From an uncultured Bacilli bacterium (GTDB lineage: Bacteria; Bacillota_I; Bacilli_A; RF39; UBA660): 64,000 bases of DNA. The notes below the pieces were generated by a model. The model was not told the DNA's origin, did not search any database, and worked only from the letters and a program-made list of their open reading frames with translations. Position numbers and translations under genes: made by a program. The stretch lies in the NCBI GenBank assembly GCA_934131175.1, contig CAKOZD010000002.1, positions 66,403-130,402 on the forward strand, written 5' to 3'. Of the stretch, positions 309 through 10,982 are shown one piece after another (position 1 is the stretch's first letter; each line of letters starts with the position of its first letter).

Positions 309-385
309 GGGCGATTAGCTCAGTTGGTTAGAGCACCTGCCTTACAAGCAGGGGGTCACAGGTTCGAGTCCTGTATCGCCCACCA
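309..385 (+). tRNA. tRNA-Val (anticodon TAC)
   Basis: Cloverleaf with GGGCGAT/ATCGCCC acceptor, TAGCTCAGTTGGTTAGAGC D-arm, anticodon loop CTTACAA, GGTTCGAGTCC T-arm, encoded CCA. Confidence 0.85.
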
Positions 386-388
386 TTT

Positions 389-464
<76 letters not shown>

Positions 465-470
465 TTTTAT

Positions 471-555
471 GGAGAGGTAGCGAAGTGGCTAAACGCGACA
501 GACTGTAAATCTGTTCTCATCGAGTTCGATGGTTCGAATCCATCTCTCTCCACCA
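471..555 (+). tRNA. tRNA-Tyr (anticodon GTA), long variable arm
   Basis: Acceptor GGAGAGG/TCTCTCC, anticodon loop CTGTAAA, long variable arm (TTCTCATCGAGTTCGATGG) typical of bacterial tRNA-Tyr, encoded CCA. Confidence 0.85.
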
Positions 556-565
556 CTTTTGAGTT

Positions 566-640
566 TGCCTCGTAGCCAAGTGGTAAGGCATCAGACTTTG
601 ACTCTGACATGCGTTAGTTCGAATCTAACCGAGGCAGCCA
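566..640 (+). tRNA. tRNA-Gln (anticodon TTG)
   Basis: U1:A72 first base pair and G73 discriminator as in bacterial tRNA-Gln. Anticodon stem-loop TCAGA-CTTTGAC-TCTGA, T-arm GGTTCGAATC, encoded CCA. Confidence 0.8.
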
Positions 641-653
641 TTTTTATTGATAT

Positions 654-729
654 GATCTGTTAGCTCAGTTGGTAGAGCATTTGACTTTTAATCAAAGGGT
701 CATGAGTTCGAATCTCATACAGGTCACCA
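654..729 (+). tRNA. tRNA-Lys (anticodon TTT)
   Basis: Acceptor GATCTGT/ACAGGTC, anticodon loop CTTTTAA, T-arm GAGTTCGAATCTC, encoded CCA. Confidence 0.85.
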
Positions 730-734
730 TTGTT

Positions 735-823
735 GCCTGAGTGGCGGAATTGGTAGACGCACAGGACTTAAAATCCTGCGAGAATCAACCCTCGTGCCGG
801 TTCAAGTCCGGCCTTAGGCACCA
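735..823 (+). tRNA. tRNA-Leu (anticodon TAA), long variable arm
   Basis: Acceptor GCCTGAG/CTTAGGC, anticodon loop CTTAAAA, long variable arm, T-arm GGTTCAAGTCC, encoded CCA. Confidence 0.85.
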
Positions 824-861
824 TTTAAAAATTTAACTCAATATTTATTTATTGAGTTTAT

Positions 862-954
862 GGAGGAATACCCAAGCCTGGTTGAAGGGACCGGTCTTGA
901 AAACCGGAAGGTCGTGCAAGCGGCGCTAGGGTTCGAATCCCTATTCCTCCGCCA
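862..954 (+). tRNA. tRNA-Ser (anticodon TGA), long variable arm
   Basis: Acceptor GGAGGAA/TTCCTCC, anticodon stem-loop CCGGT-CTTGAAA-ACCGG, long variable arm, discriminator G, encoded CCA. Confidence 0.85.
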
Positions 955-961
955 TTTATAT

Positions 962-1038
962 CGCGGGATGGAGCAGTTAGGTAGCTCGTTGGGCTCATAA
1001 CCCGAAGGTCGGAGGTTCGAATCCTTCTCCCGCAACCA
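962..1038 (+). tRNA. initiator tRNA-fMet (anticodon CAT)
   Basis: CGCGGGA...TCCCGCA acceptor with C1xA72 mismatch and three consecutive G-C pairs in the anticodon stem (GGG-CTCATAA-CCC), both hallmarks of bacterial initiator tRNA. Encoded CCA. Confidence 0.85.
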
Positions 1039-1056
1039 ATTTATTTAATTTATTAT

Positions 1057-1133
1057 GGTTCCTTGGTGCAGCTGGTTAACACGTCTGCCTGTCACGCAGA
1101 AGATCGCGGGTTCGAGTCCCGTAGGAACCGCCA
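1057..1133 (+). tRNA. tRNA-Asp (anticodon GTC)
   Basis: Acceptor GGTTCCT/AGGAACC, anticodon loop CTGTCAC, T-arm GGTTCGAGTCC, discriminator G, encoded CCA. Confidence 0.85.
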
Positions 1134-1136
1134 TAT

Positions 1137-1212
1137 GGCTTCATAGCTCAGTCGGTAGAGCAAGGGACTGAAAATCCCTGTGTCGCTGGTTCGATTCCCG
1201 CTGGAGCCACCA
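1137..1212 (+). tRNA. tRNA-Phe (anticodon GAA)
   Basis: Acceptor GGCTTCA/TGGAGCC, anticodon loop CTGAAAA, T-arm GGTTCGATTCC, encoded CCA. Confidence 0.85.
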
Positions 1213-1265
1213 TTTTAATTAAGACAACTAAATGTTATATGTGCTGTAGCTGAACAACATGTCTT

Positions 1266-1342
1266 GCGCTCGTAGCTCAGTTGGATAGAGTGTTTGGCTA
1301 CGAACCAAAAGGTCAGGGGTTCGAATCCCTTCGGGCGCACCA
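1266..1342 (+). tRNA. tRNA-Arg (anticodon ACG)
   Basis: Acceptor GCGCTCG/CGGGCGC, anticodon loop CTACGAA, T-arm GGTTCGAATCC, encoded CCA. Confidence 0.85.
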
Positions 1343-1347
1343 GTTAT

Positions 1348-1424
1348 CGGGAAGTGGCTCAACTTGGTAGAGCACTTGGTTTGGGACCAAGGGGTTGCAG
1401 GTTCAAATCCTGTCTTCCCGACCA
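1348..1424 (+). tRNA. tRNA-Pro (anticodon TGG)
   Basis: Acceptor CGGGAAG/CTTCCCG, anticodon stem-loop CTTGG-TTTGGGA-CCAAG, T-arm GGTTCAAATCC, encoded CCA. Confidence 0.85.
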
Positions 1425-1433
1425 ATAAGAAAT

Positions 1434-1460
1434 AAACGTTGAATTATCAACGTTTTTTTG
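1434..1460 (+). terminator. rho-independent terminator closing the tRNA array
   Basis: AACGTTG-AATTAT-CAACGTT hairpin followed by TTTTTTTG. Confidence 0.6.
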
Positions 1461-1547
1461 TTTGGCCGGAGTAACAATCTTTTTCTGCATCCCCTTGCTC
1501 TCAAACGTAATTGTACCAATTAATTTAAATTACTTATCTGGTGCCCC

Positions 1548-2321
1548 TTAATTGATTCTCACATATTTTATATATAGCTTTTCTATATTTACTTCATCAA
1601 TTTCAAAACTTGTCCCATGGTCATGAATTTGACCTTTTTTTGGTCCGTCTCTATATATACCAATTTTTAGTTTAACTCTTATTGTTCCATCTTTTATTAA
1701 ATCAATAAATGTACGTTCATTCTTTAGTCTATAAAAGTCATAATTATAATACTTATAGAAGTCTATGTTGTTTCTTGCATATTTTATTGCATTTACTACT
1801 AATAAATAACTTAATTTCTTTTGTAATCTTTCATATAACTCATATATATTCCAGTACGCTATTTCTTCTTTTAAAATATTATTTTTATAATATACTGAAA
1901 TATATAATTTTTCTTTTTTTATTGTCAGTTTAAAATAATATCTATTTCCTATTAATGTTTTACTAGTATAATATATTTCATTTTGTAAAACTTTTTTGTT
2001 TCTTAATATTTTATCTGGGTATCCATATTTTTGCACAAGTCTTTTTATTTCATTTTCATTAGAATCATTATGAGGTGTTAAGTTAAAAAGAGTAGTATAT
2101 GATTTACTGCCATATTTTTTTGCTTTAATCTCAAAATGTTTATAATCTGGCAGTGATTTTCTGTCCTCTTCCTTATCTAATAATGTTTCTAGTGTTTTAC
2201 CTATTCCAGTAGGTCCTTTTCTTACACTTTTGTGCCATCCAGCACATTTGATTTTAAATAATTTTTTATTTAGTTCAATTATTTCACTTTCTATTTCTTT
2301 GTCTACATTTGTTGTGTACAT
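1548..2321 (-). CDS. solitary MutH/Sau3AI-fold (PD-(D/E)XK) endonuclease-like protein, MvaI/BcnI-like in size
   Basis: The segment AGWHKSVRKGPTGIGKTLETLLDKEEDRKSLPDYKHFEIKAKK aligns with the E. coli MutH catalytic core DKGWIGVLLEIWLG...EQDFAALGVELKT (GW, G..LE..LG, D-F/Y, E-h-K). ATG at 2321 is preceded by AAAGGAG with 7-nt spacing (the ORF track extends 3 nt to a TTG). No methyltransferase gene is adjacent. Confidence 0.5.
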   Translation of the reverse strand: MYTTNVDKEIESEIIELNKKLFKIKCAGWHKSVRKGPTGIGKTLETLLDKEEDRKSLPDYKHFEIKAKKYGSKSYTTLFNLTPHNDSNENEIKRLVQKYGYPDKILRNKKVLQNEIYYTSKTLIGNRYYFKLTIKKEKLYISVYYKNNILKEEIAYWNIYELYERLQKKLSYLLVVNAIKYARNNIDFYKYYNYDFYRLKNERTFIDLIKDGTIRVKLKIGIYRDGPKKGQIHDHGTSFEIDEVNIEKLYIKYVRIN

Positions 2322-2591
2322 CAAATTTCTCCTTTCAATATATTATTAAGAATTTTTTTAACTTTTATTGAAAAAAATAAAAATTTATAATCAACTTGTT
2401 ATGTAATTTTGTTTATACTTTGAAATTTATAGTTATATAAATTTTTTCTTCAATAACAGTTTTATTTATTCTATTGTATTTTCGATACTTCTATTTTAAA
2501 TAAATATAAAAAGAAATAATTCTGTCAGTTAGAATTATTCTTTTTTATTTAACAAATTTCTATTACTAATTTATTAGTTTTTTTATTAATT

Positions 2592-3779
2592 TTAGTTATC
2601 ATTACTTTGAACATTATAGTCATTCGTATCGTAAGAATCAGTTGAATTAATTTCATCACTTGAAACGCTATTACTATAATCATACATTTCATCGTTGTTA
2701 TTTGATGGTACATAATTATTTATAGAACTATAATTATTTTGCCTATTATTGTTATTATAATTACTTTTATTTTTTGTATTTTCTTCAATGTATTTTTCAT
2801 CATAATTATTTGTACTATAATTTATAAATTTCTTTTTATATTGATATTTTGTACCATAGCATTTAGGCAGATTTTCTGATATCGTTGATCTTTTATGAGA
2901 GTCATTAAACTGCTCATCAGTTTTATTAAAATATTTATATGAAATGCTAGTTTGATCATCCCAGGTTAAATCTATATTATAATAATCACTTTCTAATTTA
3001 ACAATATTCCAAGCATGATTTTGTCCTTCACTTTTTCCAGTTATATAGTAAGTAGTTATACCTAATTTATTCATAATATATTGAAATGCTCTTGTATAAC
3101 CAGCACATACTGTTTTTCCGGTTACTAAGGCACTATAAGCACTTTGATTTAATTTTTCATTTGAATCATAATCTGCAATATTAATTATTGTATCATGGAC
3201 ATATTTTTCTTTTTCGTAATCAGTACTATAATTATTTGCATTTTCTATTATTTTATTAGCTGAGTAATTGAATAAGTATTTTGCATTGTCTATATCATTT
3301 GCGGTTGAATTGTAATTTAAAGTTACTTGAGCAACTTTTCCGTTTAATAAATATTTATATGAATAACTTGTATCTATCCAAAATAATTCTGGACTATCAT
3401 TATAAATAGCAGTTATTGTTTCATCAAGTTCATCTTTAGTTATATCTTGTTTTGGTATAAATGTTTTTTTCATATTATCAGCATTTGCATATATTTGTCT
3501 ATATAAATCTTTTTCTTTATCAGATAGTAGGTTATAGTATGGAGAAGTTGTAGTATTTACATTATAATTTGAATAGTCGACATTAGAGTCTTTTAAAAAA
3601 GCAAGTTCACTATTTTTTATTAAATTACCTTTTGATATAAAACTTTTTAAATCACCGTACTTACTATTTATACTAGCAAGTCCTTCATTTATTAAATTTT
3701 CAATATCATAATTTTTATATTTTAAAACACCAAATATAGATATTATTATAATTAAAACTATAAGTAACTTTTTCTTCAT
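2592..3779 (-). CDS. transglutaminase-like (Cys-His-Asp) superfamily protein, membrane-anchored, with an Asn/Tyr/Ser-rich low-complexity C-terminal tail
   Basis: TGKTVCAGYTRAF...NHAWNIV...DLTWDD carries the transglutaminase-core Cys, His and Asp. Start is at MKKKLL (ATG 3779), which has a GGAAGTG SD. An N-terminal hydrophobic anchor is present. Confidence 0.6.
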   Translation of the reverse strand: MKKKLLIVLIIIISIFGVLKYKNYDIENLINEGLASINSKYGDLKSFISKGNLIKNSELAFLKDSNVDYSNYNVNTTTSPYYNLLSDKEKDLYRQIYANADNMKKTFIPKQDITKDELDETITAIYNDSPELFWIDTSYSYKYLLNGKVAQVTLNYNSTANDIDNAKYLFNYSANKIIENANNYSTDYEKEKYVHDTIINIADYDSNEKLNQSAYSALVTGKTVCAGYTRAFQYIMNKLGITTYYITGKSEGQNHAWNIVKLESDYYNIDLTWDDQTSISYKYFNKTDEQFNDSHKRSTISENLPKCYGTKYQYKKKFINYSTNNYDEKYIEENTKNKSNYNNNNRQNNYSSINNYVPSNNNDEMYDYSNSVSSDEINSTDSYDTNDYNVQSNDN

Positions 3780-3881
3780 ACTTTCACTTCCTGTATACAT
3801 ATTATATATTTTTTTTTTGAAATTTATATGTTATATTACTATTTTTTTAGAAATTTTCATATATTTCTTTAGGTGAATTTA

Positions 3882-9074: not shown

Positions 9075-9605
9075 ATGAAATTATTTATAGGATGTTCTTC
9101 ACATCCAGAGATAGATAAAAAGTACATTGAAGATGCTGATTTTATAAGTAAGGCATTGGCAGATTATGGCTATGATTTAATTATAGGCGGTATTTCAAAT
9201 GAAGGTATGTTTGGAAAAATACTAAATAACTTTAATGAGGCTCATAGAAATATAAAAATTTATACATTAAAATTATATGATGAAGATACTAGTCTATTTA
9301 ATGTAGATTGCACTTATGTAGAAAATACTTTTGAAAGAGAAGCAAGAATTTATAATGAAGCTTCTAAAGTACTTATTCTTCCTGGTGGTACCGGGAGTTT
9401 GGCTGAGTTATTCAGCATGTTAGAGGATAATCGTACAATTAAAAGTACAAAAGAGATAATTATCTATAATCAAGATGGATATTATTATGATTTGATTAAG
9501 TTTATTACAAAACTTATAAAAGAAAAGTTTAATGATCATTCTATTTTGAATTATATAAAAATATTTAATGAGAAAGAAGATTTAATAAAATATTTGGAGG
9601 TTTAA
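9075..9605 (+). CDS. LOG-family protein (TIGR00730, cytokinin riboside 5'-monophosphate phosphoribohydrolase-like)
   Basis: PGGTGSLAELF motif and Rossmann-like fold signature. SD GAAGGTGA. Its stop lies 3 nt before the glyQS start. Confidence 0.7.
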   Translation: MKLFIGCSSHPEIDKKYIEDADFISKALADYGYDLIIGGISNEGMFGKILNNFNEAHRNIKIYTLKLYDEDTSLFNVDCTYVENTFEREARIYNEASKVLILPGGTGSLAELFSMLEDNRTIKSTKEIIIYNQDGYYYDLIKFITKLIKEKFNDHSILNYIKIFNEKEDLIKYLEV

Positions 9606-9608
9606 TAT

Positions 9609-10982
9609 ATGGCAGAATTAACAATGGAAAAATTAGTAAATTATTGTAAACAATATGGATTTATATTCCAAGGAAGTGAAATATATGGAGGTCTTGCTAA
9701 TACATGGGATTATGGTCCATTAGGTTCAAGACTTAAAAATAGTATTAAGGATTCTTGGAGAAAAAGATTTATTCAAGAAAGACCTAATGCATATGAAGTA
9801 GATGCAGCAATTTTAATGCATCCAAGAGTTTGGGAAGCAAGTGGTCATGTTGGAAGTTTCTCTGATCCACTAATTGATTGTAAGAGTTGTAAAACAAGAC
9901 ATAGAGCAGATAATTTAATAGATGACTTTGATGAGAATGCTCATGCTGATGGAATGAGTCAAGAAGAAATGATGGACTATATTAGAGAACATAAAGTTCC
10001 ATGTCCAAAGTGTGGTAAGAGTGATTATACTGATATTAGACAATTTAATTTAATGTTTGAAACTCATAGAGGGGTTACTGAAGATGGTAAAAACAAAGTT
10101 TATTTAAGACCTGAAAATGCACAAGGAGAGTATGTTAACTTTTTAAATGTACAAAGAACTATGCGTGCTAAGTTACCATTTAGTATAGGACAAATTGGTA
10201 AAGCATTTAGAAATGAAATTACACCTGGAAACTTTACTTTTAGAACAATTGAATTTGAACAAATGGAATATCAAACTTTCTGTCGTGAGGGAACAGATAG
10301 TGAACTTTATGCATATTTTAAAGATTATGCTAAGAAGTATTTTATGGATTTAGGAATTAGTGAAGATAAATTAAGATTCCATGATCATGAAAAATTAGCT
10401 CATTACGCTAAAGAAGCATGTGATATTGAATATAAGTTCTCATTTGGATGGGGAGAAATTAATGGTACTCATAATAGAACTGATTATGATTTAGGAAGAC
10501 ATCAAGAGTATTCTGGTAATTCTCAAGAATATTTAGACCCAGAAACTAATGAAAAATTTATTCCATATATAATTGAATCTACTGTTGGATGTGATAGATT
10601 AACTCTTGCTATTTTAGATAATAGTTATACTGAGGAGACACTTGAGAACGGAGATACTCGTGAAGTTATGAAGTTTATTCCATATCTTGCTCCATATAAA
10701 GTATGTGTATTGCCTCTTGCTAAGAAATATCATAGTGAAAAGGCTGCAGAAATTTACAATATGTTAAGTAAAAACTTTATGACTAGTTATGATGAATCTG
10801 GTAGTATTGGTAAGAGATATAGAAGAGCAGATGCTTGTGGTACACCATGGTGTTTAACGGTTGATGATGAAACTATTAACAATGGTACAGTTACTTTAAG
10901 AGATAGAGATACTATGGAACAAATTACTTTAAAAGTTGATGAAGTAGTTGACTATGTAAATGAAAGAATTAAATTTCAATAA
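9609..10982 (+). CDS. glyQS: glycine--tRNA ligase, single-chain alpha2 type
   Basis: Class II aaRS motifs, 457 aa. N-terminal MAELTMEKLVNYCKQYGFIFQGSEIYGG..WDYGPLG is characteristic of bacterial/archaeal GlyQS. Confidence 0.85.
   Translation: MAELTMEKLVNYCKQYGFIFQGSEIYGGLANTWDYGPLGSRLKNSIKDSWRKRFIQERPNAYEVDAAILMHPRVWEASGHVGSFSDPLIDCKSCKTRHRADNLIDDFDENAHADGMSQEEMMDYIREHKVPCPKCGKSDYTDIRQFNLMFETHRGVTEDGKNKVYLRPENAQGEYVNFLNVQRTMRAKLPFSIGQIGKAFRNEITPGNFTFRTIEFEQMEYQTFCREGTDSELYAYFKDYAKKYFMDLGISEDKLRFHDHEKLAHYAKEACDIEYKFSFGWGEINGTHNRTDYDLGRHQEYSGNSQEYLDPETNEKFIPYIIESTVGCDRLTLAILDNSYTEETLENGDTREVMKFIPYLAPYKVCVLPLAKKYHSEKAAEIYNMLSKNFMTSYDESGSIGKRYRRADACGTPWCLTVDDETINNGTVTLRDRDTMEQITLKVDEVVDYVNERIKFQ

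Follow-up and report, generated by a model that had tools for sequence, protein, structure and literature searches.

The window, meaning the whole 64-kb stretch of DNA that was analysed, carries a solitary gene encoding a nuclease of the MvaI/BcnI family of restriction endonucleases. Judged from its sequence and from those of its relatives, this gene is maintained as a catalytically competent enzyme and not as a reader of CCWGG. The preferred interpretation is tentative and falls a little short of an even chance: a catalytically competent, methylase-free and self-sparing offshoot of the MvaI type, probably involved in defence of the Type IV / IIM kind against modified or otherwise foreign DNA. 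A restriction endonuclease that lacks its methylase would be expected to kill its host. A large, selected and catalytically intact clade devoid of methylase therefore informs how restriction enzymes get repurposed. Its hosts are uncultured gut Bacilli, which are abundant and very poorly known.

Gene, fold and conserved residues

Features of the nuclease locus in the window. (+) and (-), strand; (.), no strand assigned.
Feature	Position	Strand	Remarks
Array of 12 tRNA genes	309..1424	(+)	Val-Thr-Tyr-Gln-Lys-Leu-Ser-Met-Asp-Phe-Arg-Pro; same order in relatives with or without the nuclease gene
tRNA-Pro(UGG)	1348..1424	(+)	Closes the array; faces the nuclease gene tail-to-tail, with 123 nt up to the nuclease stop codon
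Hairpin terminator	1434..1455	(.)	9 bp, T-rich tails on both strands; common to the tRNA array and the convergent nuclease gene
Degenerate pseudo-tRNA-Pro	1463..1521	(-)	In nuclease orientation, inverted relative to tRNA-Pro; best core ~1485-1507, corresponding to tRNA positions 31-53
Solitary MvaI/BcnI-family nuclease gene	1548..2321	(-)	257 aa; stop codon 1548-1550; catalytic residues E45, D59, E64, K66
Nuclease RBS (AGGAG) and TAATAATAT -10-like element 5' of the RBS	2322..2345	(-)	Assigned by consensus match and reading
Transglutaminase-like gene	2592..3800	(-)	402 aa; lineage-specific insertion between the nuclease and Peptidase_S11 genes; outside the conserved unit

The minus-strand ORF covers 1548..2324 and opens with a TTG (258 aa). 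The ATG at 2321, with AGGAG located 7 nt 5', is the likely start and gives 257 aa. The initial annotation had described a catalytic core motif, recovered here as GWHKSVRKGPTGIGKTLETLLDKEEDRKSLPDYKHFEIK, and an MvaI/BcnI-like size; both stand, and the family is confirmed by a full-profile Pfam match. PF15515 (MvaI_BcnI) is the sole Pfam match at E<=1 (E=1.9e-35; 123.4 bits for a cut-off of 25), and its alignment to the window protein spans profile positions 2-227 of 227. R.MvaI (2oa9) is the only solved relative found by sequence search (E=3.8e-37). The window protein is about 33% identical to R.MvaI and about 25% identical to R.BcnI; a profile of the solitary clade defined below matches MvaI at 1.1e-65 and BcnI at 1.1e-19. 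The AF2/AlphaFold model of the protein has a pLDDT of 91 and a pTM of 0.85. When it was submitted to Foldseek, the MvaI-DNA complex 2oaa was matched with E=1.8e-24 (TM 0.80-0.84, rmsd 2.5 A), and the TM with BcnI was 0.65-0.73. Neither NCBIfam nor PHROGs gave a match. The PADLOC matches are three REase_II models (best 1.4e-37) and one MTase_II model, with zero Type IV models. On sequence and model, the window protein is an intact, full-length, two-lobed nuclease of the MvaI/BcnI family.

The label of MutH/Sau3AI fold that was given initially is right at the level of the PD-(D/E)XK superfamily and too loose below it: only MvaI_BcnI is found in Pfam, and the TM is far lower with MutH (2aor; E=0.059, TM 0.34) than with MvaI. 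Membership of the MutH family (PF02976) was rejected on this low TM and on zero MutH Pfam match at E<=1.

The catalytic residues of MvaI are E36, D50, E55 and K57; its base contacts involve R25, N28, T29, T68, T102, D207, R209, H223, D224, H225 and R230 (PMC1874612). MvaI residues were mapped by alignment, the numbering of the PDB chain being that of the paper (PMC1874612) + 3. The four catalytic residues listed in the table align, in the same order, with those of MvaI. The window protein also retains the equivalents of R25, T29, T68 and Y213 and the H-D-H loop (H223-D224-H225). Five positions are replaced (in MvaI numbering): N28P, T102E, D207K, R209K and R230E. In MvaI, these positions read the G+1 and G+2 base pairs (the GG half) and the central base. 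The MvaI base-contact set that would make a CCWGG isoschizomer is thus incomplete in the window protein.

The same pattern is found throughout the solitary clade. The D/E/K residues, whose conservation in homologues had been singled out initially as a decisive point, are invariant: the catalytic E-D-E-K and K159 are found in 81/81 non-redundant sequences of the clade, among copies that are 30-96% identical. In these 81 sequences, the equivalents of D207, R230, H100, N28, R25 and T102 lie in the 70th-90th percentile of column entropy, and only the D-H of the H-D-H loop is fairly conserved. The dN/dS of 0.13-0.29 for 21 pairs (the window gene and six relatives) shows purifying selection, under which the fold and the catalytic tetrad are preserved; full-length nuclease ORFs are found at about 90 loci.

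One locus (L022) harbours two tandem nuclease copies (9276-9998 and 10004-10738), the upstream one being devoid of the catalytic residues (Y-RSK for ENDEK).

Locus, inheritance and dispensability

The AT-rich spacer reported at 2325-2591 is indeed present upstream of the nuclease gene. It includes an AT-rich hairpin followed by a T-run at ~2514-2550, found by reading (the terminator scan made no call) and taken to be the putative terminator of the upstream gene. The TAATAATAT -10-like element recurs at orthologous nuclease loci, which implies that the gene has a short leader and its own predicted sigma-A-like promoter. Because of this element and of the putative upstream terminator, the nuclease gene looks monocistronic. 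Regulation by the SOS response was rejected: a LexA (Cheo) box was found in 0/84 nuclease upstream regions. The protein encoded upstream at 2592-3800 has a transglutaminase core, an N-terminal hydrophobic stretch and an Asn/Ser/Asp-rich tail; this insertion is found only in the lineage of the window.

In the protein database, 121 relatives were found at E<=0.001. One scan of species-representative genomes found at least 170 genomes, mostly of uncultured low-GC gut Bacilli, encoding a relative; the best 80 of these 170 loci were included in the neighbourhood set. Nearly all of these best 80 loci come from gut MAGs labelled as uncultured Bacilli, Erysipelotrichaceae, Tenericutes or Bacillales. 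The contig of one 96%-identical orthologue (L012, CAVEJT010000032.1) shares the tRNA array and the S1/NifU/YutH genes but bears the label 'Bacteroidaceae bacterium', almost certainly owing to mislabelling of the bin. A phage origin was rejected, as no match was found in 50,697 phage records and a single one in IMG/VR. The latter (L179, 127-891) is a solitary-type copy at a prophage edge, beside an Amidase_2/CW_7 endolysin gene and siphovirus tail genes; this copy may represent either flanking host DNA or a phage moron.

The commonest neighbours in 92 loci encode Metallophos, Peptidase_S11, PPIase, an FAD-dependent protein, an S1-domain protein, NifU and YutH. At least one such housekeeping marker, or one from the tRNA array, is shared by 55/92 loci, including some whose nuclease is only about 32-36% identical. 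The more similar two nucleases are, the more similar are their neighbours (Spearman 0.55 with Metallophos and with PeptS11, 0.76 with the FAD protein). Clear transfer outliers are lacking, and the nuclease diverges about twice as fast as Metallophos or PeptS11. These data argue for a largely vertical inheritance. The initial annotation had pointed to tRNA arrays as sites of island insertion. No island was found here: the nuclease is a single monocistronic gene in housekeeping synteny, no integrase gene is present at the locus, and searches for a direct repeat of the tRNA 3' end gave only weak repeats at chance level.

Two sub-lineages have distinctive neighbours. In one (L042, L045, L046, L053, L056, L060, L062, L066 and L070), the nuclease gene and an ExoIII-like AP-endonuclease gene (named from its N-terminal sequence only) are arranged head-to-head. 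In another (L010, L016, L018 and L027), a UDG-family gene is located three genes upstream of the nuclease gene.

Dispensability was examined in metagenomes by a scan seeded with the neighbouring Peptidase_S11 and not with the nuclease. Where the orthologous PeptS11-Metallophos block had sufficient sequence upstream, the nuclease gene was present only in the L097/L098 lineage. It is absent from L099, L102, L103 and L105, where tRNA-Pro ends the same array (with all 12 tRNAs in unchanged order on complete contigs, for instance in L102) and is followed on its 3' side by FemAB-, MurJ- and FemAB-like genes (named by reading of N-terminal sequences). L100, L101, L106 and L112 also lack it. A universal core gene was therefore rejected, since the same block occurs without the nuclease. 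Two metagenome contigs (L097, 7570-8360; L098, 880-1680) are 99% identical, but L097 lacks 14 bp between short AAAAGAAAA repeats and its nuclease ORF is thereby split, which reflects either a naturally inactivated allele or a misassembly. The sister lineages without the gene and this frameshift indicate that the gene is dispensable and was repeatedly lost.

These features bear on a first alternative, namely a domesticated housekeeping nickase that has lost its sequence specificity and acts on a DNA structure, a lesion or a mismatch in repair or recombination. MutH, which nicks as a monomer, is likewise a repair offshoot of a superfamily that includes restriction enzymes. Inheritance with a housekeeping block, a sigma-A-like promoter with a short leader, and base-reading residues that are relaxed while the catalytic ones are invariant would all suit such an enzyme. 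The vicinity of repair genes would suit it too (ExoIII-like gene adjacent in 9 loci; UDG-family gene within three genes in about 5 loci; each set from one sub-lineage), but these neighbours are lineage-specific and reflect only one or two events. The gene is moreover dispensable, being absent from sister lineages that have the same block and frameshifted once, and none of the 84 upstream regions has a LexA box. This alternative is considered unlikely.

Methylase linkage and tRNA-Pro linkage

Methylases were sought by their motifs ([DNS]PP[YFWH] or PCQ..S) in ORFs >=80 aa and >=100 aa. As positive controls, the same expression finds the cognate methylases of four canonical members of the family. 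In the 64-kb window, no ORF >=80 aa has a methylase motif, the sole PCQ match being the FAD-dependent neighbour gene; the lack of a methyltransferase partner noted initially thus extends to the whole window. Among relatives, where an adjacent methylase would have spoken against a solitary nuclease, the motif screen found one within 10 kb at 1/92 nuclease loci. In this exception (L059), a PF01555 methylase gene is located 14 bp from a nuclease gene of canonical type, with all MvaI read-out residues. In the neighbourhoods of relatives checked with Pfam, no Pfam methylase was found beside the nuclease gene.

The read-out residues of MvaI are also all intact in five other nucleases (P0109, P0114, P0115, P0117 and P0118). 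A large methylase with two motifs adjoins the nuclease in three of them (P0114, P0115 and P0117), in a mobile context in two cases (TrwC/TraG, resolvase, HTH controller). Two of three inspected plasmid-borne homologues show a divergent methylase gene, a small upstream ORF (annotated as an HTH regulator in one) and the endonuclease gene; the third has an unannotated 451-aa ORF where the methylase would sit. The methylases of L092 (5739-7955), L093 (5773-7953) and L095 (4584-6605) have 670-740 aa and two motif-IV boxes (DPPY, SPPY); they look like fused double methylases, possibly with one activity for each strand of the asymmetric CCWGG. The family is thus split between members that are methylase-linked and mobile, with an intact CCWGG read-out, and members that are solitary and chromosomal, with a changed read-out. 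In an NJ tree rooted on BcnI and drawn without support values, the methylase-linked members are basal and all solitary copies form one clade, which tentatively suggests a single origin of the latter.

CCWGG is not avoided in the host DNA (30 sites observed in the window for 30 expected under a maximal-order Markov model). GATC is strongly under-represented (51 observed for 165 expected in the window, z = -8.9), more so than any other word. Its observed/expected ratio is 0.4-0.5 in all locus groups (L001-L091), and CATG and CACTG/CAGTG are also depleted. The GATC depletion suggests a long exposure to GATC-specific restriction. Deduction of a recognition site from avoided words was rejected: CCWGG is at expectation, and GATC depletion is equal across the groups defined by their read-out signature.

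A second alternative is that the nuclease works as a standard Type II restriction enzyme and that the gene of its cognate methylase lies in another part of the genome. The nuclease gene is in keeping with this, being intact, under selection and complete in its catalytic residues, and distant methylases were predicted for 57/272 solitary RE genes by Ershova et al. 2012 (PMC3488263). On the other hand, 91/92 loci have no methylase within 10 kb while every canonical relative examined has an adjacent one, and the read-out residues differ so widely among vertically related copies that the methylase would need many specificity changes in step with them. This second alternative is accordingly held to be doubtful. 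Of the three options offered in the initial annotation, a methylase located elsewhere thus fits worse than a methyl-directed or a domesticated enzyme.

The position of the nuclease gene beside a tRNA array, also noted initially, is a feature of the clade as well as of the window. Among the 70 non-redundant loci with >=400 bp 3' of the nuclease stop codon, 57 have a convergent tRNA-Pro gene as the next feature within 400 bp, usually 40-175 bp away. The linked tRNA-Pro closes an array of 2-12 tRNAs. The linkage is maintained despite different upstream neighbours, which are PeptS11, ProRS, ExoIII-like or PedC-like genes according to the sub-lineage.

In 37/63 loci, the nuclease strand carries a pseudo-tRNA-Pro (z>4 relative to shuffles) that lies past the stop codon and before the terminator. 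Besides the window, these include loci among L001, L010-L018, L022-L040 and L060-L083. Positions 33-52 are the best preserved, and the copy is nearly full length in some loci. It matches local variants of tRNA-Pro at 32/35 positions in at least 9 lineages, a count somewhat inflated by the local alignment, which favours matches. Five tRNA-Pro ends without nuclease, a small control, have no pseudo-tRNA-Pro (z about 0). In L005, the pseudo-tRNA-Pro is lost and the nuclease intact; its sister L014 retains the copy. Neither ARAGORN nor Rfam calls the pseudo-tRNA-Pro as a tRNA. A read-through transcript of the inverted pair is predicted to fold into a long hairpin (-73.5 kcal/mol, z = -6.1). The pseudo-tRNA-Pro may result from gene conversion, the two inverted repeats being close to each other; it may also be left over from the arrival of the gene, or have a function.

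It is rather unlikely that the nuclease and the inverted pseudo-tRNA-Pro constitute one functional module, in which the copy would be kept matching because it is needed (control in cis via dsRNA or an insulator, decoy, or mark for tRNA-Pro-directed homing). Such a module would provide a methylase-free way to keep a restriction-type nuclease harmless to its host.

A related alternative, a tRNA-Pro-linked cassette, would be either a homing-type selfish gene or a nuclease controlled by the inverted copy (read-through dsRNA, insulator or decoy). T4 SegB is reportedly a precedent for homing in a tRNA cluster. The close convergent tRNA-Pro despite differing upstream neighbours, the frequency of the pseudo-tRNA-Pro and its absence from the five nuclease-less ends, its local variants, the hairpin of the inverted pair if read through, and the patchy presence of the gene, with empty alleles and one decaying copy, are consistent with a cassette. 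However, nuclease identity tracks neighbour identity without transfer outliers, an intact resident tRNA-Pro would itself carry any target located within the tRNA, and L005 has lost the pseudo-tRNA while its nuclease is intact. Gene conversion between close inverted repeats could moreover give the co-variation without any function, and the local alignment used favours matches. A cassette is thus regarded as very doubtful. Lastly, a functionless relic of a decayed restriction-modification system, to which the loss of the methylase and the decay of the read-out residues could point, is highly improbable in view of the dN/dS, of the catalytic tetrad that is invariant across such divergent copies and of the number of loci with full-length ORFs.

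Proposed role and comparison with known systems

The preferred interpretation remains a self-sparing defence nuclease. As CCWGG is unavoided and no methylase is linked, the enzyme presumably cannot cut unmodified CCWGG and must spare its host. Together with an apparently ordinary promoter, the lack of a linked methylase and the many CCWGG sites imply that its target would be something absent from normal host DNA. Defence agrees with a gene that stands alone, is dispensable and evolves fast, and with the variation of the residues that contact DNA. MvaI itself provides a precedent, as it has a 5mC-dependent nicking activity (PMC3001055). The tracking of neighbour identity (Spearman 0.55-0.76) without clear transfer outliers argues against defence. 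Defence genes are usually patchier and more mobile than the solitary nuclease. A role in defence also leaves the strict tRNA-Pro linkage and the co-varying pseudo-tRNA-Pro unexplained.

The following scenario is proposed. The gene would derive from an MvaI-type (CCWGG) restriction-modification system whose methylase and controller genes were lost in an ancestor of the low-GC gut Bacilli clade. The nuclease gene would then have been fixed tail-to-tail with tRNA-Pro and transmitted mostly by vertical descent, with repeated losses. By analogy with the family, the enzyme would clamp duplex DNA between its catalytic and recognition lobes and cut one strand per binding event in a Mg2+-dependent manner. 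It would act as a single-gene defence nuclease of the Type IV / IIM kind, sparing normal host DNA.

Should the enzyme prove to be modification-directed, we know of no earlier example in the MvaI/BcnI family, and it might then supply new reagents that nick as monomers or are specific for modified DNA. Changes of specificity could be studied in this clade as in a natural series, since its read-out residues vary while the scaffold is constant. The tie to tRNA-Pro and the co-evolving pseudo-copy could point to a new mechanism of control or mobility.

Among known systems, MutH (GATC nickase of mismatch repair) and its restriction relatives, such as Sau3AI, share only the PD-(D/E)XK superfamily with the window protein, and the window locus shows nothing pointing to a Dam or hemimethylated-site logic. 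R.BcnI (CC/SGG; 2odh, 2odi) belongs to the same family and has the same fold. It is more distant than MvaI and retains the Asp and Arg equivalent to D207 and R230, both of which are lacking in the window protein. R.MvaI (CC/WGG; 2oa9, 2oaa) has the same two-lobed fold and catalytic E-D-E-K, and its monomeric mechanism, one strand at a time, is expected of the window enzyme too. What sets the window gene apart from that of R.MvaI is its place on the chromosome, within housekeeping synteny and in linkage with tRNA-Pro, and the lack of both methylase and controller genes. The MvaI/BcnI family is absent from the survey of solitary REase genes (Ershova et al. 2012, PMC3488263), and in the literature searched, neither a paper on solitary genes of this family nor a Type IIM or Type IV enzyme belonging to it was found. 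With these solitary REase genes and with Type IIM and Type IV enzymes, the window gene has in common a nuclease unlinked to a methylase, a single-gene organisation and an accessory distribution.
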